The translations under genes were made by a program, and so were the position numbers. Positions 2,133 to 23,405 of a DNA stretch of 52,832 bases are shown here, one piece after another. This DNA comes from a virus (Duplodnaviria > Heunggongvirae > Uroviricota > Caudoviricetes). The stretch lies in IMG/VR virus record IMGVR_UViG_3300028797_000097, one strand, 5' to 3'. The notes beneath the pieces are model-generated. The model worked only from the letters and a program-made list of their open reading frames with translations. It was not told the origin of the DNA and made no database searches. Within the stretch, counting starts at the first letter, position 1; every line of letters starts with the position of its first letter.

Positions 2133-2879
2133 TTAAATACCAAAATTTTCTAAGAAATAATCAGGAAGCTTTGGATTGAAATGTTGAATACGTATCGTTT
2201 CCAGTTTAAATTTTCCTGCATTATACGCACGAATAATCTTATCGTAATTTGGACCTTGAATACCTTTTCTAATAAGTTCATTAACTTCATGATATGTAAA
2301 GCCTAACTTTTCTTCGTCAGAAAGTGGTTGAAGCCCATCAATCGGTGTTTTATGCGTAAGTTCATATGGAAGTCCAAGGTCATCACCAATTTCGATAACT
2401 TCTTCCGTGGTTAGCATATCAATCGGTGCAAAGGAACCACAAGTATCTCCCCAAAGCGTAGCATAGGAAACTATATTTTCGCTGCGATTGCATGTGTTAG
2501 CCATTAACCAACCATTAGTTTGTGCTGTTACCATAATCTGATTAGTACGAAGCCTTGCACCAACATTTGTCTTAGCATCATAAGACTTATCTGCGCCAGG
2601 AACAAGTGCTAAAGATTCTTTAACAAGTGTTTCAATATCTTGAACATCATAACTAATGCCAAGATGATCAACTAATTGATAAGAGCAAGAAATATCCTTT
2701 TGAATACCACATGGAAGTAATACACCATGTACATGTTCTTTACCTAATGCTTCTTTACAAATAGCTGCGACAACACTAGAATCTTTGCCACCAGAAATAC
2801 CAAGAACAGCATCAGTTTTACCTACTCGGTTGAAAAAATCTGCTGTCCAATCAATTACGTTTTTAGTTAATGTCTTCAT
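2133..2879 (-). CDS. nadE: NH3-dependent NAD+ synthetase
   Basis: PP-loop LGISGGKDSS, NVGARLR, NTCNRSE, YATLWGD, DEEKLGFTY; 248 aa, no glutaminase domain. Confidence 0.93.
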   Translation of the reverse strand: MKTLTKNVIDWTADFFNRVGKTDAVLGISGGKDSSVVAAICKEALGKEHVHGVLLPCGIQKDISCSYQLVDHLGISYDVQDIETLVKESLALVPGADKSYDAKTNVGARLRTNQIMVTAQTNGWLMANTCNRSENIVSYATLWGDTCGSFAPIDMLTTEEVIEIGDDLGLPYELTHKTPIDGLQPLSDEEKLGFTYHEVNELIRKGIQGPNYDKIIRAYNAGKFKLETIRIQHFNPKLPDYFLENFGI

Positions 2880-2958
2880 AATTTTTCCTTGATTAATTTT
2901 AAACTTTTATATTATCAAAGATAGCAAAGAAAACAGAGCTGAAATGTAAATTTATTTT

Positions 2959-3102
2959 TTACTTTCCCTCTCCCTTCTCGAACCAACGAAGTTCTCGAAG
3001 TTGCTTTCTAATGTCATTAAATGTATTTCTTTCCTTGATAATTACACCTCCAACCAGTGTAATCCCCAAAAGTGCCAAAACGGCTTTTAAAAATTTATTC
3101 AT
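2959..3102 (-). CDS. 47-aa single-TM protein (not in ORF track)
   Basis: MNKFLKAVLALLGITLVGGVIIKERNTFNDIRKQLRELRWFEKGEGK with AAGGA RBS. Confidence 0.7.
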   Translation of the reverse strand: MNKFLKAVLALLGITLVGGVIIKERNTFNDIRKQLRELRWFEKGEGK

Positions 3103-3131
3103 AATATATCCTTTTTAAAATGTCTGGCACA

Positions 3132-3160
3132 AATATAGTAAATTTTACTTAAATTGTAAA
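3132..3160 (-). promoter_or_regulatory. sigma70-like early promoter
   Basis: TTTACA-N17-TATATT. Confidence 0.75.
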
Positions 3161-3162
3161 CC

Positions 3163-3564
3163 TTACTTCTTTTTTAATAATTCAGTAAATTTATCGGCTA
3201 ATTTGCCAGCATCTGATTTTTCTCTTTCCTGAAACATCGGATCAACTTTCTTTTTAGGTGGGTTTGATTTTGCTTTAGGATAATGTTGTGGAAAATTACC
3301 TTTAATTTTTTGTCTGGGATATGATGGGTCACGTGCAGACATAAAGCTATTGAATCTTTTATCAATATCATCAAGATTTTTTTCAACCTGTTCGATACTA
3401 GCTTCTATAGATTTAATAGATGCATCTACTGAATCTTCAACTCTTGGAATAGTCTTAATCCACTTACCAAATTTTTGATCTTGTGGTTCAGGACCAAGAA
3501 CACGCCAGCCCATGCCTTCCATCATACCTTTTACATCATCTAAATTCATGTATAGATACCTCAT
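3163..3564 (-). CDS. hypothetical coiled-coil protein
   Basis: 133-aa ORF overlapping the macrodomain stop (ATGA). Confidence 0.7.
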   Translation of the reverse strand: MRYLYMNLDDVKGMMEGMGWRVLGPEPQDQKFGKWIKTIPRVEDSVDASIKSIEASIEQVEKNLDDIDKRFNSFMSARDPSYPRQKIKGNFPQHYPKAKSNPPKKKVDPMFQEREKSDAGKLADKFTELLKKK

Positions 3565-4373
3565 TCTAGTATTTCTTTAAATACTTTGTAATTAGTATCA
3601 TCCTTTCCACAATAGACAGCAAATTCAATATTCTTGAAGAAGTATTTTCCGAGTTCCATAGCTTTTTTATAAGCCTTGGCTACGATTTCAGGTGGGTTTT
3701 TGAATGCTCCACAACCGAATGCGCCAAGAATAATTGTTTCATCACCATGAGATGCAGCTAAGTTAAAAATATGAACTGCTCTGCGGAAATGAATATTAAA
3801 CAATTCTTCATCAGTAACGTTTGGTTTTTCACCACGTTCATGGTTGTAAGCGTTTGCAGGTGTTTCACGAAGATTAGGTGCTGCACAAGTAATTACATCT
3901 ACAGAGAATGGACGATACAATAAGTTATAATTGTCCGATTTGATAATTTGAATATTGGGTGTGTAAATTGCATCATTGTTATGAAGTGCATTCCCATATT
4001 CTTTATGTGGTTTATAAAAGATTTCGTCAAACTTCGGGTCAGACAAAACATTATAAAGTGTAGAACAACGACAAAGACATTCTTCTTGTGCATTAGAACC
4101 CTTTGTTACACCGCCACCAGGATTTGTAGCAGAAGCAAAATTGAGAACTGCTACCTTACCAGTATATTTTCTTGCCGCATCAAAAGAACTACTCTTAGTA
4201 ACCTTGACAGTTCCTGGAGTTTTGTTCTCACAGAAAAAGTCAATCGTCATATCATCGGCAAGAAACTCCGAATTTTCAATCGAATACTTAATAGAATTCT
4301 GTAAGGTTTTATCCTTACTGATTAATTCTTGAGTATGATTAAAAATTTTAATATTTTCTTCTTTACTAGCCAT
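3561..4373 (-). CDS. TIGR02452-type macrodomain / bacterial PARG-like ADP-ribosylhydrolase
   Basis: VLNFASATNPGGG, AQEECLCRCSTLY (GGG-x-QEE), ILGAFGCGAF. Confidence 0.88.
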   Translation of the reverse strand: MASKEENIKIFNHTQELISKDKTLQNSIKYSIENSEFLADDMTIDFFCENKTPGTVKVTKSSSFDAARKYTGKVAVLNFASATNPGGGVTKGSNAQEECLCRCSTLYNVLSDPKFDEIFYKPHKEYGNALHNNDAIYTPNIQIIKSDNYNLLYRPFSVDVITCAAPNLRETPANAYNHERGEKPNVTDEELFNIHFRRAVHIFNLAASHGDETIILGAFGCGAFKNPPEIVAKAYKKAMELGKYFFKNIEFAVYCGKDDTNYKVFKEILE

Positions 4374-4375
4374 GA

Positions 4376-4657
4376 TTAAGCCTTAAACATATCATCACAC
4401 TTCAAGAGCAAACGATCAATCTTGGGCTGGATCATCTTTTGGTTATATGGATCATCGCCAACGATGTCATTCTTGGTCCAGTGGCAGAGTCTACCGATAA
4501 TAAGGAACCAGAAGACATTTGCAAGTGGTGACATAAAAATATCAAGCACACTTGGATGAAATGGTACATGGTCCATTTTATGGCCAACATAGAGTGCGAT
4601 AATGCCAGCTGCATACATTGCAATGACAGTGAGAATGATAGTAGTGATTGTAGTCAT
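4376..4657 (-). CDS. small membrane protein
   Basis: Two hydrophobic segments, AAGGA RBS. Confidence 0.65.
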   Translation of the reverse strand: MTTITTIILTVIAMYAAGIIALYVGHKMDHVPFHPSVLDIFMSPLANVFWFLIIGRLCHWTKNDIVGDDPYNQKMIQPKIDRLLLKCDDMFKA

Positions 4658-4690
4658 GTTTATTTTTCCTTTGGTTATAGTTTTTTATAA

Positions 4691-4719
4691 AATATAACAA
4701 AAAGCAGGGCTGTTGTCAA
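4691..4719 (-). promoter_or_regulatory. sigma70-like early promoter fused to terminator hairpin
   Basis: TTGACA-N17-TATATT; stem aagcaggg/ccctgctt plus U-tract. Confidence 0.85.
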
Positions 4720-4757
4720 CCCTGCTTAATGATTTTATTTAGGAGAAATCCTTTTTA

Positions 4758-5408
4758 TTAGACACCCTTGTAAGCTTTGACGACTTCTTCGAATTCAGTG
4801 TCGAGAGCGACAGTTTCGATAGTCTGAGTGCCCTTACCACCCTTACCGGTGATTTCGGCAATTTCCTGCTTAGCTTCGATGTGGAACTGAGTGGTCTTGA
4901 CTTCGCTTTCGATTTCAGCAATCATAGCGTTGCAATCGATACCGAAATCGCCAATCTTGTTGCGATCGCACATCTTGAGTGTATCGATCTGGACCTGGAG
5001 AGCAGTGAGCTTAGCTTCGATGAGAGCCTTGTTGGTGTCGATGTTCTTGAGAGTGTCGCGAACCTGGACACACTGCTTTTCTGTGTTCTGCCAAGCAGTT
5101 TCGATAGTGTCACGAGCAGTCTTCATGCCCTTGTAAACAATATACTTAATCTTAGCTTCATCGAGCTTGTCAGCAGCGATGAGAGATTCGTAGACACGCT
5201 TGCTAGTAGCGGTCTTTTCGTCGAGTTCCTCGAACTTGGCCTTGAGTTCCTTAGCGTTGACCAGCATATCTTCAGCCGACTTGATATACTGAGCGGCATT
5301 CTTATTATACTGATAACGGATTTCCTCAATCTTATCCTTGGTGGAGATGAGGCCTTCGAGACCACGCTGAGCCTTGTGAGCGAAGATTTTGAAGATATTG
5401 AAAGACAT
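4758..5408 (-). CDS. PspA/IM30-like coiled-coil protein
   Basis: 216 aa, continuous heptad coiled coil, PspA-like length and layout; family call by resemblance only. Confidence 0.55.
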   Translation of the reverse strand: MSFNIFKIFAHKAQRGLEGLISTKDKIEEIRYQYNKNAAQYIKSAEDMLVNAKELKAKFEELDEKTATSKRVYESLIAADKLDEAKIKYIVYKGMKTARDTIETAWQNTEKQCVQVRDTLKNIDTNKALIEAKLTALQVQIDTLKMCDRNKIGDFGIDCNAMIAEIESEVKTTQFHIEAKQEIAEITGKGGKGTQTIETVALDTEFEEVVKAYKGV

Positions 5409-5466
5409 AGTTTTGTTTCCTTATGTTAATTGTTGAATTGTTTTATTGTTTTTTGTTTATGTGCAT

Positions 5467-5495
5467 AATATAGTAATTATTATCGCACTTGTAAA
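5467..5495 (-). promoter_or_regulatory. sigma70-like early promoter
   Basis: TTTACA-N17-TATATT. Confidence 0.75.
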
Positions 5496-5503
5496 CCCCC
5501 TGA

Positions 5504-5947
5504 TTATAAAAATTTTATGCAGGCAACCTTAGTGGGATCTACTTTATATTTAAGGTGCTTGTTGAGACGCTTAATCTCATCATTTTTTATATCAGTTAAT
5601 GCATTATATACCTCTGGAATGCAACATCCGCGAGTACTATGGCAATATTCAACTATCGGTGCAGTTCTAGCATCAAATCGTTCTGAAAACTCTTTAATAT
5701 ATGCTAGTTCTTCTTCAGATGAATATTGAATTGTATTACCGTAGAAATCTACAGTTCCAATAGCCGGATGTTCACGTTCCTTTAAATAATCATTAAAGTC
5801 TTCAATAGTATTTTCTAATACCATACTAAAGAGAGTTTCATCTACAGGCTTTTCTCTCGTGCTATATTTAATAATATTGCACAAGCAAGCAGCTCTTACA
5901 GGTTGATCTTCTCTAGGTATCGGTGGAAATGCTGTTCCTGGACCCAT
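5504..5947 (-). CDS. hypothetical protein, paralog of 5960..6493
   Basis: Shared FNDYLK..HPAIG..DF and EIKRLNKHLKYKVD motifs. Confidence 0.7.
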   Translation of the reverse strand: MGPGTAFPPIPREDQPVRAACLCNIIKYSTREKPVDETLFSMVLENTIEDFNDYLKEREHPAIGTVDFYGNTIQYSSEEELAYIKEFSERFDARTAPIVEYCHSTRGCCIPEVYNALTDIKNDEIKRLNKHLKYKVDPTKVACIKFL

Positions 5948-5959
5948 ATATTCTCCAAA

Positions 5960-7606: not shown

Positions 7607-7615
7607 ATATTCTCC

Positions 7616-7921: not shown

Positions 7922-7924
7922 GGT

Positions 7925-8454: not shown

Positions 8455-8976
8455 TTAGTTTTTAAGAAAGTTGTTATAAGTACTTATCATTTCTTTTTCT
8501 GTTTTTTCTCGAACAATCATTTTTTCTTTTGTTTTTCTTGGTGCGAATAACATAAAGAAATGTTCAAGACAGAAATTAACGGCATAGAATAAATACCTAG
8601 TGAAATCATAAAGAAGAATAAACGGTGCTACCATAAGCAATGCACCACTGCAAGTAGCAAATACCCAAAAATATCCAGCAACTAAGAATCTTCGGTCGTC
8701 ATTACTTGTATACTGTGAATCAGCAAATAATGTGAAAACGCCGAAAATAATAGAAATTATTACCATGATAAGTCCGATTAACCAAACTTTAGCACCTGGT
8801 GGAGCAACAAGTGAAAGATTACCCATTTCTTCTGGAGTTGTAGCAAAATAACCAACGCCAGTAATAACGCTAAAAATAACAATACACAGGACAGATAAAA
8901 CTGTTAAAGCATATGAAAATTCATTATAACTAGCGTCAATAATTGATTTACCAGTATCTTTGAGTAATTTAAACAT
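8455..8976 (-). CDS. multi-pass membrane protein
   Basis: About 3 TMs; C-terminal MISTYNNFL. Confidence 0.7.
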   Translation of the reverse strand: MFKLLKDTGKSIIDASYNEFSYALTVLSVLCIVIFSVITGVGYFATTPEEMGNLSLVAPPGAKVWLIGLIMVIISIIFGVFTLFADSQYTSNDDRRFLVAGYFWVFATCSGALLMVAPFILLYDFTRYLFYAVNFCLEHFFMLFAPRKTKEKMIVREKTEKEMISTYNNFLKN

Positions 8977-9167
8977 TATGGATTTTCTCCTTTGACAAAT
9001 TTGTCAAGAAGTTCTAAGAATTTATCTTCTTCTAAAAAGAATGGATCTTGCCCATACCAACCGAAGAAATTGAACATAAACTGTCCAAAACGCCAATCAG
9101 GGAAATGGGTTATATGGACAGTTTGAAGTTTTTGATAAAAATCGTAAAGACGATTCGGATCTCGCAT
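8976..9167 (-). CDS. small conserved-phage-type hypothetical protein
   Basis: MRDPNRL...PDWRFGQF...DPFFLE pattern seen in many phage ORFs. Confidence 0.7.
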   Translation of the reverse strand: MRDPNRLYDFYQKLQTVHITHFPDWRFGQFMFNFFGWYGQDPFFLEEDKFLELLDKFVKGENP

Positions 9168-9827: not shown

Positions 9828-9856
9828 AATATAGAAAAAAGAACCACTTTTGTAAA
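9828..9856 (-). promoter_or_regulatory. sigma70-like early promoter fused to the pncB terminator
   Basis: TTTACA-N17-TATATT; stem aaagaacca/tggttcttt. Confidence 0.8.
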
Positions 9857-9896
9857 TGGTTCTTTTTAATTTTTATCTGATGAATATTTTTGCAGA

Positions 9897-11180
9897 CTAC
9901 GGTGTTTTAATCACGACCATTCCACCCTTCCACTGGTCAAGCGGAATATACTCAAATACGCTCTTAACGTATTCAACGTATGCCGGAGATTCGCACATAT
10001 TCTTTTCAGGGCAATCGCTAAGCTTAACGACATCTCTACCATTAACCTTAACAACCTTCATGACCATGGAAAGCGGCTTAATACCAGCAGTCTCAGTTAC
10101 AAGATTTGCCATGAAATAAGTACCGATACCGAAGCTGATCTTGATACGACCATTGAAATGCTGTGCAATCTTGATAGCCTTATCAACATCGAGAGAGTCA
10201 GACCAGCAACCAGTCTTAGTAGTCGGGTCAATACCGAGTGCCTTATAATGGGCAATCAACATTTCACCCCAGACAATCGGGTCACCAGAGTCATGACGAC
10301 ATCCGTCGAACAACTTTGCATAGAACTTATCAAAGTCACGAAGGAACGGAATGAAACCAAAGTTATCAGACAATGCAATACCGAGATCGCCACGATATTC
10401 CTGGGTCCATGCATCAAATACAGCCTTCTGAGACTGACGAATAGGAACATCATCAAGACCCTGGAACAATGCATACATTTCATGTGCAAACGTTCCAATT
10501 GCCTTTACACCATATTTAATGGCGAAATAAAGGTTAGAAGTTCCGACAAAGCACTTACAGTTCTTAGCCATATAACCAACTGCATAGTCCTGCCAAGCGA
10601 AAGAATGTCTACGTCTTGCACCAAAATCAGCAAAACCGAACTTTAAGCCAGAATCGATTGCAGCATTAAACTTATCAACTGCTTCCTTAAGATTTTGCTT
10701 TGCCTTTTCAAAATCAAATTCAAACTGACGGAGATAAAGTTCCTGGATGATTTCCATCACATAGATTTCAAACCAAGTAACCTTGAGCTGAGGACCTTCT
10801 GCTTCAATTTCAAGATCGTCACCACGACGAGTAATCTTGATATACTTTCTCTTCAACCGGAAGTCTTCTAGCCAGTCAACATAGTCAGGCTTAATGTAAT
10901 AAATCTTGGACAATGCATCAAGTTCAAACGGTTGCCATCTAAGAGTACAAAGATGATCAACTTCACGGTTAACTGCATCAACCAAATAACCCAAATGAAC
11001 ATCCTTAGAGCGAAGCTTCCACTTCCACTTAGCCCATTCATTTGGACGCTTATGAAGTAAACATTGTGTCATACTGACCTTATAAATGTCAGTATCACTC
11101 AAATAATTGATGATATACTTTTCTTCATCAATCGGTTTATAATTCTTAATTTCGTCAATTTCTTTTTGAGAAAGTTCCAT
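9897..11180 (-). CDS. pncB: nicotinate phosphoribosyltransferase (E. coli-type NAPRT)
   Basis: DTDIYK, DFGARRRHS, GTSN, GTFAHE, GCRHDSGDP, WGEMLIAHYKALGIDP, SFGIGT, KLSD motifs match PncB rather than NAMPT. Confidence 0.93.
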   Translation of the reverse strand: MELSQKEIDEIKNYKPIDEEKYIINYLSDTDIYKVSMTQCLLHKRPNEWAKWKWKLRSKDVHLGYLVDAVNREVDHLCTLRWQPFELDALSKIYYIKPDYVDWLEDFRLKRKYIKITRRGDDLEIEAEGPQLKVTWFEIYVMEIIQELYLRQFEFDFEKAKQNLKEAVDKFNAAIDSGLKFGFADFGARRRHSFAWQDYAVGYMAKNCKCFVGTSNLYFAIKYGVKAIGTFAHEMYALFQGLDDVPIRQSQKAVFDAWTQEYRGDLGIALSDNFGFIPFLRDFDKFYAKLFDGCRHDSGDPIVWGEMLIAHYKALGIDPTTKTGCWSDSLDVDKAIKIAQHFNGRIKISFGIGTYFMANLVTETAGIKPLSMVMKVVKVNGRDVVKLSDCPEKNMCESPAYVEYVKSVFEYIPLDQWKGGMVVIKTP

Positions 11181-11208
11181 TTTAATATCCTTTTTTAAAT
11201 TTGACTAA

Positions 11209-11237
11209 AATATAGCAAAATAAAATGTATTTGTAAA
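11209..11237 (-). promoter_or_regulatory. sigma70-like early promoter (pncB)
   Basis: TTTACA-N17-TATATT. Confidence 0.8.
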
Positions 11238-11246
11238 TGCTTTTAA

Positions 11247-11254
11247 TATAAATA
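11247..11254 (+). promoter_or_regulatory. T4-type late promoter
   Basis: TATAAATA(ATATAAA) upstream of leader-family gene 11323. Confidence 0.75.
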
Positions 11255-11322
11255 ATATAAATTACGGTTTCTTAGAGTTCCGAGAAACCAAAGAAAATAC
11301 AGAATTTAATAGAGGATTAGGT

Positions 11323-11871
11323 ATGAATCTTAATGAAGCAAAGCAATTTCTTAAAAGACATGGCTTTATCGTAGAAAGAAAGGGTGATTTTGTTGATCCG
11401 TCAACAAGACCTGAATTTTATGACCCGGATTACTATGCAGAAGATGGTTATGATGCTAGTGATGAAGAAAGCGATTGCTCAAATTATGCTACCGAGGTTG
11501 AAAAATATTTAAAAACAAATTATCCTGATAAAAAGGTCGAAGTTAATTATGATATTTCTGACGATGGAGAATATATTAAATATGAATGCGCTGTTGCTTT
11601 TATATTTGATCATCTTCCAACATTTGATGAAGTAACTGACTGTGAAGATATTTCTTATGACATTGCAAATGATGTAGATGATTGCGGATGTCCATGGGAT
11701 GATGGCGAAACTTTAATATATGCCGTTGTCAATGGAAAGAAACAAGATATAACTAATACTTATAAAAATCCAGAAGGCATAGAAAACGCTGAATATTTTG
11801 AAGTTGTTGAAATGTCTTATGGTACAAAACGAATTCCTGAACCAGAAGATCCTCGTGAACCTGAATGGTAA
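11323..11871 (+). CDS. leader-family late protein, acidic cargo (putative virion-internal)
   Basis: MNLNEAKQFLKRHGFIVE leader; GAGGA RBS; D/E-rich body. Confidence 0.75.
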   Translation: MNLNEAKQFLKRHGFIVERKGDFVDPSTRPEFYDPDYYAEDGYDASDEESDCSNYATEVEKYLKTNYPDKKVEVNYDISDDGEYIKYECAVAFIFDHLPTFDEVTDCEDISYDIANDVDDCGCPWDDGETLIYAVVNGKKQDITNTYKNPEGIENAEYFEVVEMSYGTKRIPEPEDPREPEW

Positions 11872-11889
11872 TTTATTAACATGAAAATA

Positions 11890-11919
11890 AAAAAGGATTG
11901 GATAAAACCAATCCTTTTT
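11890..11919. terminator. bidirectional intrinsic terminator
   Basis: aaaaaggattgg/ccaatccttttt between convergent genes. Confidence 0.85.
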
Positions 11920-12288: not shown

Positions 12289-12507
12289 TTATTCCTTAAT
12301 ATTGATTTTGATTTGAGAACCTAATGTTCTGATCACAATATCTACGTTTTCTTTTGTAACAGGTTTATGTAATTTTCTTACTACATCTTCAGCCAGTGCA
12401 TAAATCTGCTTTTCTGTCGCGCCATCGGCAACAGCAAGCAGATCTTGCCATACATCTGCAAGGTCATTAAGACCTTCTGTATTATATCTGTCTAGAATAT
12501 TAGGCAT
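12289..12507 (-). CDS. hypothetical protein
   Basis: 72-aa ORF overlapping the pncA stop. Confidence 0.7.
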   Translation of the reverse strand: MPNILDRYNTEGLNDLADVWQDLLAVADGATEKQIYALAEDVVRKLHKPVTKENVDIVIRTLGSQIKINIKE

Positions 12508-13087
12508 TGATTACATCAATCTGTTGACGCTGGAGACAGAGAATTGCAGCCTTCTGACCTTCTTCATCCAAATCAGCAATGCAGCTTGCATCGACCGTAA
12601 TCTTCATATTCGGGAATGCAGCTCTGAGAATAACTGCGTTCGCAAGAACACAAATCGTGCTTACGAAACCCCAAATTTCAATTTCGTCGAATTCAATACC
12701 GAGATTTCTGATATATTCAGGAAGATCGAGCTTACCGAATGTATACTTATCGACAGAATAGAAATTGTGCTTACCATCTTGGTTCTTCTTCTGAAGTTCA
12801 TCAAGAATAGTCTTTTCAATTTCCCAACCATCGGTCAGCTTAATGCAGTGCGGAACTGGAAGCTTCTGACCTTCCAATGTTTCCTCATACGGCTTGCCTT
12901 CCATTGGAGGCCAACCAGTAGTAACCTGCATCTTGTTAAAGTGAGTATCATGCGTTGCAATGATAGCACCATCCCAGTGCTTAATCTTGTTAACAATATT
13001 AGGAACCTTCGCCTGTGCGAATGGATTTGCGAGTGCACCAGTAATAAAGTCTACCTGTGCATCAACTAATAAGCCGAGTTTTGCCAT
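12500..13087 (-). CDS. pncA: nicotinamidase (isochorismatase / cysteine hydrolase family)
   Basis: LLVDAQVDF (Asp), HDTH, PHC, DKYTFG (Lys), GFVSTICV (Cys nucleophile). Confidence 0.85.
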   Translation of the reverse strand: MAKLGLLVDAQVDFITGALANPFAQAKVPNIVNKIKHWDGAIIATHDTHFNKMQVTTGWPPMEGKPYEETLEGQKLPVPHCIKLTDGWEIEKTILDELQKKNQDGKHNFYSVDKYTFGKLDLPEYIRNLGIEFDEIEIWGFVSTICVLANAVILRAAFPNMKITVDASCIADLDEEGQKAAILCLQRQQIDVINA

Positions 13088-13113: not shown

Positions 13114-13142
13114 AATTTAGTAAATTTTTTTGTGTTTGTAAA
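13114..13142 (-). promoter_or_regulatory. sigma70-like early promoter (pncA), variant -10
   Basis: TTTACA-N17-TAAATT. Confidence 0.6.
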
Positions 13143-13147: not shown

Positions 13148-13792
13148 TTATTTGTTTTCAGCTTCCTTATAAAGCTTTAAAAATTCTCTCGAAATAAAAT
13201 TCGTATGAATTCGTTTTTCTTCAAAAGGTTTATCAGGACCATGAACTGCAACATGCATGTTATATGCCAATCTTCGCATACATTGTAAACCTTCTTTGTC
13301 ATGTTCGAGTTCTTCTGGGAAATCTCCATGCACTTCATTCCAATACTGACTTCCTACGACAGTCATGGAATGCATAAGAAAATAAGAATTAAGATGAGCA
13401 AATGCTAGTTCATTACCTGCACGTCTCGAAACTGTTATCCCTGCTGCATACTTATTACGCATAACATTTGCGGCAGAATAAAATACACGAGACATAAAAT
13501 TGGCAAGTTGACCAGTAATTCCAGCATAATAAACTGGCGATGCAAAGATAAAACCATCGGCATTCTGTGCTTTTTCAATAAAGCGATTAACTAAATCGTT
13601 ATCAAAAACACAGTGTCCAAGTTTTTTATCTTTACAGACATTGCAACAAATACAACCGTTCATCTGTGGACCTAACCACATATTATCGATTACATTATCG
13701 CCGAGAATTTTAAATTCTTCTTCGACTTCATGCAATGCCCTAGCAGTACAACCGTCTCGGTGTGGACTACCATTTACCATTAAAATATTCAT
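13148..13792 (-). CDS. iron-sulfur flavoprotein (flavodoxin-like, Isf/WrbA family)
   Basis: NGSPHRDGCT, CX2CX2CX7C (CICCNVCKDKKLGHC), FASPVYY. Confidence 0.85.
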   Translation of the reverse strand: MNILMVNGSPHRDGCTARALHEVEEEFKILGDNVIDNMWLGPQMNGCICCNVCKDKKLGHCVFDNDLVNRFIEKAQNADGFIFASPVYYAGITGQLANFMSRVFYSAANVMRNKYAAGITVSRRAGNELAFAHLNSYFLMHSMTVVGSQYWNEVHGDFPEELEHDKEGLQCMRRLAYNMHVAVHGPDKPFEEKRIHTNFISREFLKLYKEAENK

Positions 13793-14745
13793 TACTTTTC
13801 TGCCTCAAGTGCAATCAACGAGTTACCACAAGTAATACGGTCTGCGTCTTCTTCATGCGACGGGATGAAAACAATAACCTGCCAACCTGCATCAACAAGT
13901 GGCTTTTCGAACTTTTCGTAAACGTCGAAATCAAATTCAGTAGTGAAGTTATTTACTGCTGCAGCTTCTGTTGCATGGATAGGAGTAATCTTGACAATGA
14001 AACGATCCTTGTCGAAATACTTGTCCATGAGAGCAGGGTCAAGATTGCACTTGCCAGTTGCTGCAAAGTTCAGAGTATACTTTCTACCAGCAGGAGGCGG
14101 AAGACGCTTTGCCAAATCCGAGATTTCCTGCAAGCTTAACGACTGGTTATTAAACATGTCGTTTCTATCAGCTTCATCAAGGGTATTGATAGAGAACTGA
14201 AGACCAATACCGCCATTCCACTTTGCATCGTAACCAAGAGCACACCAGTCTTGGAGGAATGCTTCAAGCTTCTTATTGTTATTCGGAAGCATGGTAGAAA
14301 CGACAGGATGATATTCCTTGAACCAGTTATTGGAAATATTACCAATATCACGAGCGACCTTAATTACGTTTGGATTCCAAGTAGGTTCGCCCATTCTTGC
14401 AAAGTGGACATTGAGTCTTTCACCTTGAGTGATCTTAGAGAATGCGATACCATTAACAATTTCGGACATCAATTCAAAGTAGGGGACATTTCCCTTGAAG
14501 CCGAACTTAGGACAGTCACAGAACTTACAGGATTCAAGACAACCCTTCTGTGTAGAAACCGTAACGACAAGCTTATCCGCTACATCGACGGGTTTGTGAA
14601 CGACCTTTTCGATTCTTTTGGTATAGCCTAAGAAATCTGCCTTAATGTTATTTTCTTTACCATAATCGCCTACGTAAAGATACTCCAAGTTGAGGTCTGT
14701 GTCCGAGACAATCATGCCAGTGTGTGTTTGAGTTATAGTTCTCAT
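13792..14745 (-). CDS. RlmN/Cfr-like radical SAM enzyme
   Basis: VSTQKGCLESCKFC (CX3CX2C), RMGEP, C-terminal ITCGNS equivalent to the RlmN AACGQL methyl-carrier Cys. Confidence 0.8.
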   Translation of the reverse strand: MRTITQTHTGMIVSDTDLNLEYLYVGDYGKENNIKADFLGYTKRIEKVVHKPVDVADKLVVTVSTQKGCLESCKFCDCPKFGFKGNVPYFELMSEIVNGIAFSKITQGERLNVHFARMGEPTWNPNVIKVARDIGNISNNWFKEYHPVVSTMLPNNNKKLEAFLQDWCALGYDAKWNGGIGLQFSINTLDEADRNDMFNNQSLSLQEISDLAKRLPPPAGRKYTLNFAATGKCNLDPALMDKYFDKDRFIVKITPIHATEAAAVNNFTTEFDFDVYEKFEKPLVDAGWQVIVFIPSHEEDADRITCGNSLIALEAEK

Positions 14746-14846: not shown

Positions 14847-14875
14847 AATATAAAAAAATAGACCGCTTTTGTAAG
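14847..14875 (-). promoter_or_regulatory. sigma70-like early promoter fused to terminator hairpin
   Basis: CTTACA-N17-TATATT; stem gaccgctt/aagcggtc plus U-tract. Confidence 0.8.
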
Positions 14876-14909
14876 CGGTCCTTAATTGTTAAACGTGGTA
14901 AAAAATTAT

Positions 14910-15277: not shown

Positions 15278-15757
15278 TTATGCCTTTAGTTTTTCTTCTA
15301 GTTTATGTAATACTTCCTTATATGTCGTGAAAAGGATAGCGTTACTCCCAGCCCCAACAAAATCAGCACAATTTTCTGGTTTGTCATCGATTAATAAACG
15401 ATTTGGTTTCGCATGTTCAACCTTATTAAAAGACTTATCGCAAATAATAATATTTGCCTGATCTATTTCAGGACAGTTACATTCAAGCCAATATCGTTTT
15501 CCTCGTTTACCAGACTTAGAGAAAATAGCGGATAGAACACCAAGTTTAAAATTATACTTCTTCTGTAATTCAAGAATGCCTAGATAAAGATCATGACCTT
15601 CAAGAAGCCAAGGCATATCAATCCAGAATTTAGCACCAATCTTACATACTTTATCCCAATTCGCTTTTCCCGTAGGTTTTCGGGCATTGTAAAAATCAAT
15701 CTGGTAATCCCAGTTAGTTAATACACCGTCCATATCTAAATATACTTCATCTATCAT
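15278..15757 (-). CDS. HAD-family 5'(3')-nucleotidase-like protein
   Basis: YLDMDGV (DxD), LIDD, K in VEHAK. Confidence 0.8.
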   Translation of the reverse strand: MIDEVYLDMDGVLTNWDYQIDFYNARKPTGKANWDKVCKIGAKFWIDMPWLLEGHDLYLGILELQKKYNFKLGVLSAIFSKSGKRGKRYWLECNCPEIDQANIIICDKSFNKVEHAKPNRLLIDDKPENCADFVGAGSNAILFTTYKEVLHKLEEKLKA

Positions 15758-16749
15758 AGAGTAGAAATGTTTAAAAGTTCAGAAATTGTTTCGTGTCCAG
15801 TTATTTTATGGAAATTTTCCTTAGGCATATCGACCGAAATACTTACTTCCATATTAGGCATGTCTATATAAAGGTCAGGAACGATAATATTGCCTACTGT
15901 ATCTCGTTTCTTAATTCCGTCAATATTATAAATTGAATCTGATGGAACATCAAACAGATGTAATACTCTTGCAGGATTAATCTGTTTAAAACCAAGAATA
16001 TCAAAGTTTATAATCTTGCACATGCTATGCAATGCCGGAATTTTCTTCTGTAACCAGGAAATATTCTTTTCGATTTCTTTCTTATACTTTTCAAAAAGAA
16101 CCTTTCCTCGACCAGTATTCTTGAATCCTTGAATCAAGACCCTTCTTCCCTGTAAAGCAGGAAGGTCATGCCTGTTAAGAATACCAGCGATTACATGAAT
16201 AACGACCCTATCGCCAAGTTTGTCTATGAATTTAAAATCTTCCTTACAATGTGCGTCATGCAATGTAATTCCAAGGCCATAAATGAGTTCTTCATCGATT
16301 AATTTCTTAATAAGGTCTTTATTTTCTTTGATATGAATCTGATTAATATTAAGGTTAACGATGATTTGTCTTGCCTTGAGAATTCCCAGAATAGTTATAA
16401 GTTCTGGATGTGCTAAAGGATTTCCACCAGTAATATTAACTTCAAGTCCAGGATAGAAAGAATTAATCATAGGTAACAGCTTTGACAAATCAGCATGCTT
16501 TGTTGCACTATTACTTCCTTCAGAACAGAACTGACAACCTGCATTACAAAAGTCTGTAATTTTTATAGTTATATTTTCTGGCGCTTCATAAATGAAATTT
16601 TCAGAATCTGTCTCAACCCAACGGTTGACACGAGTTCCTTTAGATCCTGGTTCGTTTACGTAGTAACCAGTCTCTTTGACCTTCGTACCGTCAGTATAAA
16701 TAGTAGTACGATGATTGCCATTTATATAACTAGTTATAATATTACTCAT
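15754..16749 (-). CDS. radical SAM domain protein
   Basis: KITDFCNAGCQFC (CX3CX2C), ITGGNPL. Confidence 0.85.
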   Translation of the reverse strand: MSNIITSYINGNHRTTIYTDGTKVKETGYYVNEPGSKGTRVNRWVETDSENFIYEAPENITIKITDFCNAGCQFCSEGSNSATKHADLSKLLPMINSFYPGLEVNITGGNPLAHPELITILGILKARQIIVNLNINQIHIKENKDLIKKLIDEELIYGLGITLHDAHCKEDFKFIDKLGDRVVIHVIAGILNRHDLPALQGRRVLIQGFKNTGRGKVLFEKYKKEIEKNISWLQKKIPALHSMCKIINFDILGFKQINPARVLHLFDVPSDSIYNIDGIKKRDTVGNIIVPDLYIDMPNMEVSISVDMPKENFHKITGHETISELLNISTL

Positions 16750-17533: not shown

Positions 17534-17535
17534 AT

Positions 17536-17543
17536 TATAAATA
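17536..17543 (+). promoter_or_regulatory. T4-type late promoter
   Basis: TATAAATA(ATATAAA). Confidence 0.75.
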
Positions 17544-17571
17544 ATATAAAGAAAATTAATTGAGAGGAATT

Positions 17572-19329: not shown

Positions 19330-19348
19330 TAATCTCAATTAATAAAAG

Positions 19349-19376
19349 AAAGGCGGCAAGTAATTGCCGTCTTTTT
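19349..19376. terminator. bidirectional intrinsic terminator
   Basis: aaaggcggcaa-gtaa-ttgccgtcttt. Confidence 0.85.
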
Positions 19377-19379
19377 ATT

Positions 19380-20708
19380 TTAGAATGTCTTAATAAATGC
19401 GGTATAACCTAAGTAAGCGTTATAAATGTCATTTACATGGGCAAGTTCTAATGGAGAGTGCATATTCAGAATTGGAACACCTGCATCAAGAACATTGATA
19501 TTCAATTCACAAACCATACTTGCGATTGTTCCACCGCCACCAACATCGACCTTGCCAAGAGAATCAAACTGATACTTAACTCCTGCATCCTTCATAACCT
19601 TTCGGATATAAGCAATAAATTCAGGATTTGCGTCAGCACCACCAGACTTACCACGACCTCCATTATACTTAGAGAACATAATACCACCATTTAACTTAGC
19701 AGAAGATTTCTTATCATAAGCGTCTGCATAAAGTGGGTCATAAGCTGCAGTAACGTCAGAAGAAAGCATACGAGAACGTGCTAAGTATGTAGCAAATTCA
19801 ACTTCATCCTTCGGTCTCAAGACACAACGTAATACGTCTTCAAACCATCTCGATTTTGCTCCTGTAGCACAGCAAGAACCAATTTCTTCCTTATCTACTA
19901 ATACAACACCAGATGTGACTTCTGGAAGCTCCTGGAGCGACAGAACAGCCATTAATGAGGTAAATGCGCAAACTCTATCATCTTGACCATAACCAGCAAT
20001 CAAGGACTTATCAAAGCCAGAATATCTTGCTTTACCTGCAGGAACAATTTCAAGTTCTGCAGAAACTAAATCTTCTTCTTCAACTCCATATTTTTCCTTA
20101 AGGAACTGTAAAACCCATTCCTTAACCTTTTTCTTATCCTTATCTTCAGTTTCGATTTCAGTCGTTGCTACGAGAATATCGAGCTTTTCACCATTAATGA
20201 AATCACTTGCTTTCTTTTCTGCAAGTTTCTTATCAAGGTGAGGAAGAAGGTCACAAATACAGAAAATCGGATCATTCGGATCTTCACCAATAGAAACCTT
20301 TACAGTGTTACCGTCAATAGTGCAAATAACACCATGAATAGCAAGCGGAGTAGTTGTCCATTGATACTTCTTGATACCACCATAATATTGTGTATCAAAG
20401 TAAGCAATTCCATCTGATTCATAAAGTGGCTTTTGCTTGACGTCGATTCTAGGAGCATCAATATGAGCACCGAGAATGTTTACTGCTATGTTTGCCTTAC
20501 CAACAATAAATGCTGCAAAATTCTTATTTTTATTCTTGAAATAAACCTTTTCACCTGGCAACAAAATACCAGAAGTATGTTTATATTGCCTAAAACCAGC
20601 AAGAATAGCAAGACGTTCAGCTTCATCGACACAAAGACGTTCAGTCTTCGCGGTTGAAATAAAATTAATATAATCTGTGATTAAGTTTGTTTGATTTATT
20701 ATACTCAT
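19380..20708 (-). CDS. M18 family (aspartyl/ApeA-like) aminopeptidase
   Basis: GAHIDAPR, GQDDRVC, DKEEIGS, SSDV, MHSPLE; ATG 20708 preferred. Confidence 0.9.
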   Translation of the reverse strand: MSIINQTNLITDYINFISTAKTERLCVDEAERLAILAGFRQYKHTSGILLPGEKVYFKNKNKNFAAFIVGKANIAVNILGAHIDAPRIDVKQKPLYESDGIAYFDTQYYGGIKKYQWTTTPLAIHGVICTIDGNTVKVSIGEDPNDPIFCICDLLPHLDKKLAEKKASDFINGEKLDILVATTEIETEDKDKKKVKEWVLQFLKEKYGVEEEDLVSAELEIVPAGKARYSGFDKSLIAGYGQDDRVCAFTSLMAVLSLQELPEVTSGVVLVDKEEIGSCCATGAKSRWFEDVLRCVLRPKDEVEFATYLARSRMLSSDVTAAYDPLYADAYDKKSSAKLNGGIMFSKYNGGRGKSGGADANPEFIAYIRKVMKDAGVKYQFDSLGKVDVGGGGTIASMVCELNINVLDAGVPILNMHSPLELAHVNDIYNAYLGYTAFIKTF

Positions 20709-20716
20709 ATAAATCA

Positions 20717-20744
20717 AATATAAAAAAATAACGGGTTTTGTAAA
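20717..20744 (-). promoter_or_regulatory. sigma70-like early promoter fused to terminator hairpin
   Basis: TTTACA-N16-TATATT; stem aataacgggttt/aaacccgttatt. Confidence 0.75.
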
Positions 20745-20771
20745 CCCGTTATTGTTAATTGCTGAAATTTA

Positions 20772-22013
20772 TTAAGCGTTTTCTTTGAAGTTCTTAGCGA
20801 ATTCTTCAAATACCTGTTCGAGACATTCCTTAGTCAAACCGAGCTTGAAGACTGGCTTATAAGTATCGTAGAATTCCTGAAGGTTATGTGCTACGAACGG
20901 CTTATCTGTATCAGTCTTATAGCGAGTGTTCAAACGAGTTAAGGCATGCTGACAAATAGCACGGACAATTTCAACACTTGCAGCACCGATTGCGTCACCA
21001 ACGACACCACCGTTACGGATAAGTCTTGGATTATCAGTGAAGTACTTCTTAACAATTTGCTTAGCCTTCAACTTAAATGGATCATTATCACGTCTTGGAA
21101 TTTCGATTGTATTCGGAATTTCACCGTCAATGATTTCATTAATCTGAGCAGCATAAGTCTGAGCATCAGAGTTCAAGAATGAACGGCATTCAGCAGCAGT
21201 CGGGAAGTTAGCAGCACCTAAGCTATCCTTAATAGTCTTCTTAACGCTCTGTTCCATATATTCTGCATCGTTGTTTGCTAACAATCTCATTGCGTCTTCT
21301 GGGAAGTCGTTAATGAACAATGCCAACTTGTAAGCAACGGTTTCGTCCATCTTAGCACGATCTTCTTCTGGAACACGGTTAAGTTCGTCTCTCTTATAAG
21401 CACGAACCCAGTCATTCCAAGCATCACTAAGTTCTGTAGCAGAACCAGAGTAATCCGGCATAATCCAACGAGCCAAGTCACGGCTAAGCTGTCTATAAGA
21501 GTTAGCACCGAATCTGTCCTTAGCTTCTTCTTCGTTGTTCTTAAACCATTCGACGAAATCAGCCATATCAAGTTCGTTATAAGCGTCAGCTAACTGAACA
21601 TTATTTCTGGAAATCTGGTTGTGGAACTTAATACCACGGTCATAGTAGTTTCTATCAATATCATCTTTACTATGTTCGATAGCTCTACCAATTCTAGTAT
21701 AAAGCTTATAATATGCACTTTCTGTAAACTTACGCTTAAAATCATACCAGCTTGTTGATGTAAGATCAATATTGAGCTTACTTCTAATTAATGCAACATA
21801 AGCATCCCAATCAAAGCGGTTAACTTCAATGAATCTTTTTAACTTAGCCATTGCGGTGGCAGTTGAATCACGTTCACTGATAACTTCATTGATTGCCTTT
21901 GCAGTAAGGAACATCTGCTGCTTTTCTGGTGTAAGTTTATCAAAAACACGACGTTGTGCGTTCTTAGCCATTTCAGTAATATATCTCTTTTTTCTGATAG
22001 TGAGCAAGCTCAT
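20772..22013 (-). CDS. late protein of unknown function (divergent leader ending YITE)
   Basis: Late promoter 22041-22048, AAGGAG RBS, 413 aa, mostly helical. Confidence 0.75.
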   Translation of the reverse strand: MSLLTIRKKRYITEMAKNAQRRVFDKLTPEKQQMFLTAKAINEVISERDSTATAMAKLKRFIEVNRFDWDAYVALIRSKLNIDLTSTSWYDFKRKFTESAYYKLYTRIGRAIEHSKDDIDRNYYDRGIKFHNQISRNNVQLADAYNELDMADFVEWFKNNEEEAKDRFGANSYRQLSRDLARWIMPDYSGSATELSDAWNDWVRAYKRDELNRVPEEDRAKMDETVAYKLALFINDFPEDAMRLLANNDAEYMEQSVKKTIKDSLGAANFPTAAECRSFLNSDAQTYAAQINEIIDGEIPNTIEIPRRDNDPFKLKAKQIVKKYFTDNPRLIRNGGVVGDAIGAASVEIVRAICQHALTRLNTRYKTDTDKPFVAHNLQEFYDTYKPVFKLGLTKECLEQVFEEFAKNFKENA

Positions 22014-22040
22014 ATAATCTCCTTAAAATTTACTTTATAT

Positions 22041-22048
22041 TATTTATA
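22041..22048 (-). promoter_or_regulatory. T4-type late promoter
   Basis: TATAAATA(ATATAAA) on minus strand. Confidence 0.75.
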
Positions 22049-22050
22049 AT

Positions 22051-22078
22051 AAAAAATGAGAGAATTAATCTCTCATTT
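22051..22078 (-). terminator. intrinsic terminator abutting late promoter
   Basis: aaatgagaga/tctctcattt plus U-tract on minus strand. Confidence 0.8.
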
Positions 22079-22097
22079 CTTACAAAAAATACAGAGT

Positions 22098-22289
22098 TTA
22101 GAGATTATCGGCTATAATTTCTTCTGATTTTTCTTCTAGTTGTCGTTCTGCCTCAGCTGCATGAATTTTTTCATCTGTAACTACTTCAGTATCAAAACGG
22201 TCAAGATGTAGCATTGCACGTTTTAATTCTTCAGCAGGAAACATAGAAATCATTTCACCCAATTGAAGCTTTGGCTTTTCGTTTTCCAT
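22098..22289 (-). CDS. hypothetical acidic protein
   Basis: 63-aa ORF after the NadD-Nudix gene. Confidence 0.65.
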   Translation of the reverse strand: MENEKPKLQLGEMISMFPAEELKRAMLHLDRFDTEVVTDEKIHAAEAERQLEEKSEEIIADNL

Positions 22290-22301
22290 ATTAATTATTT
22301 A

Positions 22302-23405
22302 TTACTGTTTTAAAGCATCTTCGATAATCATGCCATGGTGGAAACCAAGTTTTGGCAAATTATCAAGCTTAAACCAGCCTACATCTGCAGCATCATCGCC
22401 AGCAACTGCCTTTTTCTTGTCCTTACCAGGAACATGTACAACAAATGCTGTATCAATAATGCGAAGTCTCGGATCAAACATATGGCTATATGTCTTAATC
22501 TGAGTAAACTTTTCAACTGGAATGTCAAGTCCGGCTTCTTCCCTAAATTCTCTCTGTGCTGCATGTTCAAGACTTGCATCTGGTTTTTCCATTTCACCAG
22601 TTTCTTTATTCTTGAATGCAGAATGATTAAAGAATCCACCAGGAGTGCACCAATGACCCATGAAAGGAGGTTTCTTTCTACGAATCAACATAACTTCGTC
22701 GCCGGAAATTGCACAAACGTCAACTGTGTTTGCAAATGCTCCCCAGCCCTGTTTCTTATAGTTTTCAACCCATTTCTTTTCCAAATCCGCATAATTTGTC
22801 GGATTCTGATTATAAAGACATGTAGAAACAATATTATTCTTTGCATCAATTTCGCCTTCATGACGAATAAAATTGAATACAACCTTACTAATATACTTCT
22901 GAACATCCTTATAGTGACATTCTGGATTAACTCTAAAGATTTCTCTAACAGCACTGCTAGAAATACCTTCAGTCTTGAGATTGTCAACAATAGTGCAATT
23001 TGCTTGCTTATAAGCAACAGCTGCGTCTCTTGCGAAGACGAGGAACTTATAAGTATTCAGTAAACGGTTACTATATAACCACTTACCAGCAACGAGACTC
23101 TTCCATTCATCATCGCCAATAACGATAGTAATTTCATTCGGGTCAACTTGACGATAATTAACCCAAAGATATTCATACATTCTGTTAGTTTGAATATCAA
23201 TATCGTAATCAACATTCTTAGATGCTAATGCGACTTTGACCATCTGCTTACGTGCACCTGCGGGTGTGCGATTGGTCTTTTCGTCATTATCTGTAACAAG
23301 AATGTGAAGTTTATCGCCAGCTCTCATTCTTTTCTTGACAGCTTTGATAATTGCTTCATGTGCATGTGTGAATGGGTCAAACCAGCTTCCGAATATATAA
23401 TGCAT
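22302..23405 (-). CDS. bifunctional NadD-like nucleotide adenylyltransferase / Nudix ADP-ribose pyrophosphatase
   Basis: GSWFDPFTHAH (HxxH), ISSSAVR; Nudix WCTPGGF...AAQREFREEAGL, DPRLRII, AGDDAADVGWF. Confidence 0.85.
   Translation of the reverse strand: MHYIFGSWFDPFTHAHEAIIKAVKKRMRAGDKLHILVTDNDEKTNRTPAGARKQMVKVALASKNVDYDIDIQTNRMYEYLWVNYRQVDPNEITIVIGDDEWKSLVAGKWLYSNRLLNTYKFLVFARDAAVAYKQANCTIVDNLKTEGISSSAVREIFRVNPECHYKDVQKYISKVVFNFIRHEGEIDAKNNIVSTCLYNQNPTNYADLEKKWVENYKKQGWGAFANTVDVCAISGDEVMLIRRKKPPFMGHWCTPGGFFNHSAFKNKETGEMEKPDASLEHAAQREFREEAGLDIPVEKFTQIKTYSHMFDPRLRIIDTAFVVHVPGKDKKKAVAGDDAADVGWFKLDNLPKLGFHHGMIIEDALKQ

Follow-up and report, generated by a model that had tools for sequence, protein, structure and literature searches.

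Depletion of nicotinamide adenine dinucleotide (NAD+) is among the commonest ways in which bacteria abort phage infection, and phage-encoded routes that rebuild NAD+ have been demonstrated experimentally, namely NARP1 and NARP2 (preprint 10.1101/2024.02.11.579819), NARP1-AP (10.64898/2026.01.28.702374) and NARP3 (PMC13464706), none of which uses PncA, PncB or NadE. In addition, Li et al. 2024 (Microbiome, PMC11662467) describe Preiss-Handler clusters in jumbo phages of the animal gut and report that the salvage or Preiss-Handler pathways of 174 phages are complete, with the pncB-nadD-nadE cluster of Kuafu_71 as an example; the article mentions phage pncA, notes NAD-dependent ligases and proposes, without experiments, that these genes counter Sir2-type NAD+ depletion. 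The DNA analysed here is the 52,832-nucleotide stretch in the IMG/VR record IMGVR_UViG_3300028797_000097, referred to below, at its full length, as the window. We put the probability at about 0.75 that it encodes a four-step deamidating route of the Preiss-Handler type, leading from nicotinamide to NAD+ in the infected cell. The four open reading frames (ORFs) concerned, pncA, pncB, nadE and a gene for a NadD-type adenylyltransferase fused to a Nudix domain, are intact where the initial annotation had placed them, all on the minus strand and spread over 21 kb.

In the proposed route, PncA would deamidate nicotinamide to nicotinate, PncB would combine nicotinate with host-made phosphoribosyl pyrophosphate (PRPP) in an ATP-coupled reaction to yield nicotinate mononucleotide (NaMN), the NadD-type domain would adenylylate NaMN to nicotinate adenine dinucleotide (NaAD), and the NH3-dependent NadE would amidate NaAD to NAD+. 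As the partner of NadD in the fusion protein, the Nudix domain would most likely hydrolyse ADP-ribose to AMP and ribose-5-phosphate, so that the second product of NAD+ cleavage would be removed and its carbon returned towards PRPP. This sequence of intermediates had been proposed in the initial annotation, and family membership, catalytic residues, folds, co-occurrence and linkage in viral contigs agree with it; as a prediction from sequences and models, the enzymatic route appears well supported. We infer which substrates the enzymes prefer, in which order the final two reactions run, that the Nudix domain acts on ADP-ribose, and what the phage gains.

NARP2, which consists of NAMPT and a nicotinamide mononucleotide (NMN) adenylyltransferase (NadV and NatV of Vibrio phage KVP40; Osterman et al. 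2024, 10.1101/2024.02.11.579819), is likewise phage-encoded and makes NAD+ from nicotinamide and PRPP, and it has, as does the window, an adenylyltransferase that carries an ADP-ribose-type Nudix domain. However, NARP2 comprises two enzymes and is amidated, whereas the window route would comprise four and be deamidated, with PncA and PncB replacing NAMPT and with NadE added; moreover, the adenylyltransferase of the window is of the NadD and not of the NadM type, and NARP2 has been tested experimentally, whereas the window route is a prediction. The NAD-jumbo phages of Li et al. 2024 share with the window phage the animal or ruminant gut, the jumbo size, the set of pncB, nadD and nadE and, as far as relatives of the window are concerned, an NAD-dependent ligase-like gene; the hypothesis of counter-defence extends to both. 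By their description, the window differs in having pncA in the conserved module, in the fusion of NadD to Nudix and in the dispersal of its genes as separate early units, whereas the genes described there are clustered; the predicted hosts of the Kuafu clade are given as Bacteroidota, whereas the promoters of the window look sigma70-like. The combination that defines an NAD-jumbo phage, a jumbo genome (its size being taken here from relatives) with pncB, nadD and nadE, is thus found, with pncA in addition. The initial annotation had seen in the window a new third route, which does not hold, because phage Preiss-Handler clusters and the idea of counter-defence had already been described by Li et al. 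2024 and because a separate pathway of PnuC and NadR already bears the name NARP3 (PMC13464706).

Two of the four enzymes are recognized by curated models. The pncB gene (9,897 to 11,180, minus strand) encodes an E. coli-type (type I) nicotinate phosphoribosyltransferase of 427 amino acids that exceeds the cut-offs of NF003704 (451 bits against 379) and TIGR01514 (381 bits against 269.55) and aligns over its full length with P. aeruginosa PncB (1yir, 1e-87). Its H233 is aligned with the histidine of GTMAHE in 1yir (GTxAHE motif), which we take to be the phosphohistidine site of ATP coupling in PncB. The NAMPT PHROG matches part of the same protein (2e-16). The nadE gene (2,133 to 2,879, minus strand) encodes an NH3-dependent NAD+ synthetase of 248 amino acids (PF02540, 2.9e-41; TIGR00552, 140 bits against a cut-off of 63.65), which consists of a single domain without a glutaminase part, has an SGGKDS ATP-binding loop from residue 29 and is 82-86% identical to its counterparts in four related phages. 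Its best match in the PDB is the NH3-dependent NadE of P. horikoshii (2e18, 4.6e-29, 105 bits), while the Francisella enzyme 3fiu was matched at 1.3e-14 (58 bits).

The pncA gene (12,500 to 13,087, minus strand) is predicted to encode a nicotinamidase of 195 amino acids with an isochorismatase-like cysteine hydrolase fold; it is the weakest single-sequence call of the four, with Pfam returning only the generic isochorismatase family (PF00857, 1e-12). When a profile built from six phage orthologues was compared with the PDB, the leading matches were nicotinamidases, with yeast Pnc1 first (2h0r, 1.7e-8), followed by 1ilw, 3s2s, 2wt9 and 3pl1 (P. horikoshii, S. mutans, A. baumannii and M. tuberculosis are among the sources of these entries). 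The triad D9/K114/C146 is invariant in the six orthologues and is aligned with the catalytic positions of Pnc1 and the P. horikoshii enzyme. Equally invariant are the metal ligands D47, H49 and H80, with D47-x-H49 and H80-C81 aligned with RDWH and VHCV of Pnc1; a metal site made of D-x-H and the histidine of a PxHC(V/I) motif separates nicotinamidases from other amidases of the isochorismatase family. For the AlphaFold2 model (mean predicted local distance difference test, pLDDT, 75), the top 12 PDB matches of Foldseek are all nicotinamidases, with E values of 2e-7 to 7e-6 and template modelling (TM) scores of about 0.6. Immediately upstream of pncA lies a gene for an NADPH-dependent, FMN-reductase-like protein (13,148-13,792, minus strand), which is absent from a 191 kb contig closely related to the window (G006:C83) and is an optional cassette. 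Kinase, phosphatase and vWA domains are lacking in the neighbours of PncA.

The fusion gene (22,302 to 23,405, minus strand; PF01467 and PF00293) encodes an N-terminal adenylyltransferase domain of the NadD type (residues 1-195; 22,821 to 23,405, minus strand; PF01467, 6e-11) and a C-terminal Nudix domain of the ADP-ribose type (residues ~209-367; 22,305 to 22,781, minus strand; PF00293, 2e-13). A PDB search with the single N-domain sequence returned only a pantetheine-phosphate adenylyltransferase (E 0.01). A profile of 18 N-domain homologues matched NadD structures over their full length (2h29 of S. aureus, 1.1e-10, and 2qtr, 3dv2 and 1kam, with B. anthracis and B. subtilis as sources), and essentially no NadM-type enzyme was among its PDB matches. 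The AlphaFold model of the fusion (pLDDT 89) superposes on NaMN adenylyltransferases in Foldseek with a TM score of about 0.75 and a root-mean-square deviation (rmsd) of about 3 Å, and the motifs T13-H-A-H16 and I148-S-S-S with R154, of the (H/T)xxH and ISSTxxR type, are conserved together with W109, with T13-x-x-H16, ISS149-150, R154 and W109 invariant. The Nudix domain has PDB sequence matches to 2fml and to the NadM-Nudix enzyme 2qjo; in Foldseek it matches NrtR with ADP-ribose (3gz8) and NadM-Nudix enzymes, with NudC and GDP-mannose hydrolases scoring nearly as high. The residues of its Nudix box (RE-x2-EE; R285, E286, E289 and E290) are invariant in 20 sequences, and the loop of the box carries a 13-residue insertion that one relative lacks.

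The known bacterial NadM-Nudix enzymes (Synechocystis, Francisella; 2qjo, 2qjt, 2r5w) resemble the fusion protein in joining a pyridine-nucleotide adenylyltransferase to a following ADP-ribose-type Nudix domain, with detectable homology between the Nudix domains, but the N-domain of the window protein belongs to the NadD branch and the arrangement of the domains is another one. Bifunctional NMN adenylyltransferase/ADP-ribose pyrophosphatases are the best Foldseek match of the whole protein, at an rmsd of 16 Å, and therefore only the two-domain composition is shared; likewise, the curated NadM-Nudix models (NF0037xx) reach at best 46.8 bits, against a cut-off of 397. From sequence and model, the fusion protein would be a NadD-type enzyme that works like the NadM-Nudix enzymes and yet stands outside their family. 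In metagenomes the fusion family is common, with 322 proteins, on contigs of up to 464 kb. A limited literature search found no description of a NadD-type-Nudix fusion, which is possibly undescribed and distinct from the known NadM-Nudix proteins. Directly upstream of the fusion gene lies a gene for a metallophosphoesterase fused to a P-loop kinase, similar to polynucleotide kinase-phosphatases (23,444-24,523, minus strand).

The four genes form a real conserved module. All of them are syntenic in four related phage genomes (G001, G002, G003 and G005), with protein identities of 37-95%. The initial annotation had proposed a survey of the co-occurrence of the four genes, and when viral contigs were searched with the PncA profile, 19 loci emerged, each of which has pncB and/or nadE within 10 kb (19/19). 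In one of them (L054) the fusion gene, pncB, pncA and nadE all lie within 5.6 kb, and in three others (L061-L063), with PncA proteins 35-39% identical to that of the window, pncA, pncB and nadE are tightly clustered. L061, from a distant lineage, has a contiguous pncA-pncB-nadD-nadE operon of 3.2 kb with overlapping genes, in which the ORF flanked by pncB and nadE encodes a NadD that stands alone (TIGR00482, 105.6 bits). The core of the module does not include the Nudix domain, which one lineage has as an accessory. Beyond the four NAD genes, the neighbourhoods of these loci have almost nothing in common, and the window module is spread over its 21 kb by insertions. Directly after the L061 operon lies a homing-endonuclease-like gene (13,164-14,363 of L061, plus strand; NUMOD1, I-HmuI-like), which could help the cassette to move between phages. 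A 63-amino-acid ORF without a family match (8,976-9,167 of the window, minus strand) has counterparts, 51-61% identical, close to the NAD module of the distant phages L055, L056, L061 and L062.

Other NAD+ genes were sought in the relatives and in the contig 92-97% identical to the window, which stand in for the rest of the window phage. A PRPP synthetase (Prs) was found neither among the tested ORFs of the window nor in the near-identical 191 kb contig nor in the complete relatives, so that, as the initial annotation had anticipated from the window, the PRPP must be made by the host. PRPP-synthetase-like proteins in general (PF13793, which covers Prs and Adps) had no match in five relatives or in the metagenome-assembled genome (MAG) that holds the near-identical contig. 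Each of the five relatives has one gene of the NAPRTase family, which is pncB, so that they are without NAMPT or Namat, and PnuC (PF04973) had no match in the five, NadR having had no separate search. Since NAMPT, Prs/Adps and PnuC are lacking, NARP1 to NARP3 are absent from these relatives and the deamidated route is their only NAD+ route. The claim that the pathway is distinct from NARP1 and NARP2 is therefore upheld by complete relatives without Adps/Prs and without NAMPT. The ligase search found an NAD-dependent adenylation domain of the DNA-ligase type in G002 and G003, which are complete relatives.

NARP1 and NARP1-AP (Adps and Namat with or without the macrodomain phosphatase Adpp) share with the window route the proposed purpose of restoring NAD+ after its cleavage to nicotinamide and ADP-ribose. 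Nevertheless, the PRPS-like Adps and the NAMPT-like Namat were not found in the relatives or the near-identical contig, and NARP1 pyrophosphorylates ADP-ribose, which the window route would hydrolyse. Adpp of NARP1-AP is Poa1p-like, whereas the PARG-type macrodomain protein of the window belongs to a different macro family and is unlinked to the module in relatives. NARP3, a PnuC-like transporter with a NadR-like enzyme (Sci Adv 2026, PMC13464706), also restores NAD+ in phage infection, but it imports nicotinamide riboside. Among cultured jumbo phages, Sinorhizobium phage Phosso (PV764938) has genes for an NMN adenylyltransferase, a Nudix protein, pncB and nadE close together, with the adenylyltransferase and the Nudix protein encoded separately, and Agrobacterium phage Atu_ph07 has annotated pncB and nadE; the PncB proteins of the two are 32-34% identical to that of the window, and a search of Phosso with the window PncA as query detected no nicotinamidase. 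In the literature searched, no paper was found that tests a deamidated phage NAD+ route experimentally, and none beyond Li et al. 2024 that joins phage, pncA, pncB and NAD+ depletion. The human-gut phage Phass-1 (OQ749652.1, 96,860-101,298), which uses an alternative genetic code, has in order the genes for a nicotinamidase, a ribose-phosphate pyrophosphokinase, a nicotinamide phosphoribosyltransferase, a hypothetical protein and a NadE-like protein, a locus that looks like a NARP1-like pair combined with enzymes of deamidation and re-amidation.

The macrodomain gene just mentioned lies just upstream of nadE (3,561-4,373, minus strand; microbial-type PARG, PF10021 1e-32, TIGR02452 177 bits) and is overlapped by an ORF of 133 amino acids of unknown family (3,163-3,564, minus strand). 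It is conserved in four relatives, at positions unlinked to the NAD genes, and might reverse ADP-ribosylation by host or phage. As a fifth member of the pathway it was rejected: the clade has kept it, but in G001 and G002 it lies a long way from the NAD genes.

A cassette exchange provides a view of selection on the module. The related genome G005 is collinear with the window at about 84% DNA identity, on both flanks of the cassette as well, except for positions 9,891-11,917, where a replaced cassette carries pncB and a late plus-strand ORF (11,323-11,871) with an TATAAATA box at 11,247. The window PncB is 95% identical to that of G001, a more distant phage, and only 36-37% identical to those of G005, G002 and G003, whereas for PncA and the fusion protein the pattern among the relatives is reversed; contigs whose PncA is 98% identical to that of the window bear the other pncB type, and RNA and DNA contigs of other strains skip positions 11,186-11,911. 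Both PncB types score above the curated PncB cut-offs. Since pncB was thus swapped in place for a 37%-identical pncB that passes these cut-offs, its function has been kept, which argues that this function is under selection. A like-for-like swap of a pncB cassette is possibly new.

The promoters suggest how the dispersed genes could be switched on together. A generic sigma70 scan of the window gave no enrichment over shuffled sequences. A phage consensus promoter, TTTACA-N17-TATATT, matched at 11 or more of 12 positions, occurs 17 times on the minus strand of the window, with 15 of the 17 copies in non-coding DNA (6.9% of the window) upstream of minus-strand genes, and in nearly every case 0-106 nucleotides 5' of a minus-strand start. 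One such early-type promoter precedes pncB (11,209 to 11,237, minus strand; 12/12, with an extended TG, 29 nucleotides before the ATG) and another pncA (13,114 to 13,142, minus strand; TTTACA-N17-TAAATT, 11/12, 27 nucleotides before the ATG). The promoter-like site of the fusion gene (23,426 to 23,454, minus strand; CTGACA-N17-TATATT, extended TG) matches the consensus less well and overlaps the 3' end of the upstream gene. The claim that three of the four genes follow their own sigma70-like promoter is thus confirmed, the copy of the fusion gene being the weaker one. The copy nearest nadE (3,132 to 3,160, minus strand; 12/12) lies 253 nucleotides before the ATG, with a short leader or small ORF in between, and would drive nadE.

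Judged by these sites, at least pncB, pncA and the fusion gene would be separate units of one promoter class, which presumably is read early by the host RNA polymerase, and they should therefore switch on together early in infection, the timing being deduced from the promoter type. Other genes of the window are marked by T4-type late boxes (TATAAATA). Four bovine-gut RNA libraries contain contigs of 90-99% identity that cover pncB, pncA and part of nadE; it should be noted that contigs from these libraries also span nearly the whole 20 kb and that carry-over of DNA is possible, and thus they are no proof of transcription. Compact terminator-promoter units occur on the minus strand at 9,836-9,867, 20,727-20,753, 14,860-14,881 and 4,702-4,727; in these, a G+C-rich terminator hairpin bears the -35 hexamer (TTTACA or TTGACA) in its loop region, the T-run doubles as the spacer, and TATATT comes next.

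A T4-like jumbo phage from the gut of ruminants (cattle or goat) is the source of the DNA. The window is AT-rich (~33% G+C) and densely packed with small genes, nearly all of them on the minus strand, it has close copies in IMG/VR, and its DNA is present in bovine gut metagenomes of several studies; a megablast against 50,697 deposited phage genomes gave no DNA match. Two goat-gut contigs are 92-97% identical to the window where aligned, and one of these (G006:C83, 191 kb) encodes a T4 Gp23-type capsid gene. The identical NadD-Nudix protein is encoded on a 218 kb contig in the ENA, so that contigs of the window phage reach a minimum size of 191-218 kb; the window does not fit that ENA contig by its coordinates and was probably assembled separately from the same phage. 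Of the more distant relatives, G002 is a 424 kb IMG/VR record with terminal repeats, rated 100% complete, and G003 has 411 kb, both with Gp23, which gives a range of 411-424 kb for complete relatives.

That the DNA might instead be a bacterial or archaeal chromosome, with the four genes as ordinary housekeeping salvage, is scarcely credible, even though two goat-gut MAGs with the label Methanobrevibacter contain the near-identical contigs (L042 and L043; JAFQXD010000042.1 and JAFRFB010000097.1, phage contigs of 173-191 kb), a label that is probably due to mis-binning of low-G+C phage DNA. The 191 kb contig itself carries the Gp23-type capsid gene, whose family is absent from all 14 control genomes; the relatives are IMG/VR records with Gp23, one of them complete; gene density, the packing of small genes on one strand, an endolysin and the TATAAATA late boxes are phage-like; and the sigma70-like promoters are unlike those of an archaeon. 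A chromosomal origin, which the initial annotation had named as fatal to its proposal, is thus contradicted by the Gp23-type gene on a contig 92-97% identical to the window.

The four genes might also have been acquired independently of one another and serve no joint pathway, with the isochorismatase-like protein cleaving some other amide. Their dispersal over 21 kb amid unrelated genes would agree with this, as would the generic Pfam match of PncA and the scores of its distant orthologue in L061, which reaches 28 bits with the nicotinamidase model NF008623 (cut-off 174) and weakly matches a biuret amidohydrolase model. However, linkage in every one of the 19 viral loci, including compact operons, the invariant nicotinamidase-specific metal site and PxHC motif, and the fact that the top sequence and structure matches are nicotinamidases make independent acquisition very improbable. 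Another alternative, which we regard as improbable though less so, retains the joint pathway but in the Francisella order or in an amidated branch, with NadE converting NaMN to NMN and the adenylyltransferase acting on NMN, as in NadM-Nudix enzymes. Enzymes of the NadD/NMNAT family can use both NaMN and NMN, the bifunctional NMN adenylyltransferases are the best structural match of the whole fusion, and NadE is short like the Francisella enzyme, which is among its PDB matches. Nevertheless, by sequence profile and fold the N-domain is of the NadD and not of the NadM type, the whole-protein match has the large rmsd given above, and NadE is nearer to the ordinary NH3-dependent enzyme 2e18 than to 3fiu by bit score. 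Furthermore, the conserved NadE argues indirectly for a deamidated product of the adenylyltransferase.

Several points weigh against a four-step deamidating route with a role in counter-defence. The N-domain of the fusion is a divergent NadD, with 49.3 bits to TIGR00482 against a cut-off of 112.45, and its preference for NaMN or NMN is not readable from the sequence. The window PncA has no match in NCBIfam, curated nicotinamidase models included, and its structural model is of moderate confidence, with a pLDDT below 50 in the metal-binding loop (48-86). The Nudix box has its insertion, and the putative substrate is read solely from the resemblance to ADP-ribose-binding Nudix domains. For all four genes the evidence consists of sequences and models. 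In addition, each NAD+ made would cost several ATP as well as PRPP from the host, and a cell in abortive infection may be short of these. Finally, a housekeeping need for NAD+ explains the genes equally well, because complete relatives encode the NAD-dependent DNA-ligase-like gene.

The last point leads to the question of what the phage gains. As auxiliary metabolic genes, the four would keep NAD+ high for NAD+ consumers of the phage and for a long, costly jumbo infection, and they would not have been selected by immunity. The ligase-type adenylation domain of G002 and G003 fits such a role, the microbial PARG-type macrodomain conserved in the clade suggests turnover of ADP-ribosylation, nadE alone is scattered through cyanophages and pelagiphages, and Li et al. 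2024 (PMC11662467) argue the same of NAD-jumbo phages. On the other hand, PncA is useful only with free nicotinamide, a product of NAD+ cleavage, as its input, which is a point for counter-defence; the analogue of NAMPT with an NMN adenylyltransferase was first read as metabolic and later shown to act in counter-defence (NARP2); and the ADP-ribose-type Nudix domain attached to the adenylyltransferase fits the recycling of cleavage products. Together with the presumably early genes, the Nudix domain and the analogy to NARP2 make counter-defence plausible, though this rests on inference. That countering an NAD+-depleting defence is the main benefit has, in our estimate, a chance just short of even; a general supply of NAD+ is a serious contender, itself somewhat below an even chance, and the two may coexist.

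Other unusual genes of the window lie outside this argument. Metabolic cargo genes on the minus strand (19,380-20,717, 26,691-27,806, 13,792-14,745, 15,754-16,749 and 28,167-28,763) are of the following types: an M18 aminopeptidase (NF002600, 565 bits), an M16-type peptidase, two radical-SAM proteins and a protein of the histidine-phosphatase family. A Thg1-like tRNA-His guanylyltransferase is encoded at 48,291-49,085 (minus strand). The NAD module of distant phages is adjoined by an RNA ligase (L054) or by a Thg1-like gene (L061), and together with the kinase-phosphatase-like gene upstream of the fusion gene this suggests accessory regions common to genes of RNA repair and NAD genes.

We tentatively propose that pncA-pncB-nadD(-Nudix)-nadE is a fourth phage pathway of NAD+ reconstitution, which would restore NAD+ and growth against NADase defences, a possibility to which we give less than even odds. 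Because it needs only nicotinamide and PRPP, the module would also be effective where a defence spoils the ADP-ribose half, as does aRES, by which plain NARP1 is defeated. If the proposal is correct, the module would likewise function where a PncA of the host quickly withdraws nicotinamide from routes based on NAMPT, and the NadD-Nudix fusion would couple NAD+ synthesis to the removal of ADP-ribose. Three leads follow from the analysis, namely the compact four-gene operon of L061, which is clonable at 3.2 kb, the replacement of one pncB by another as evidence of selection on the module, and the NadD-Nudix fusion, with the route to be decided by the substrate that it prefers. Three NAD+-rebuilding phage pathways have been shown experimentally, and the deamidated four-enzyme route is common in large uncultured phages, where it has been described from sequence. 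If the counter-defence role is true, it would be a fourth solution to NAD+ depletion, and phages would be able to import a whole housekeeping pathway for this purpose.

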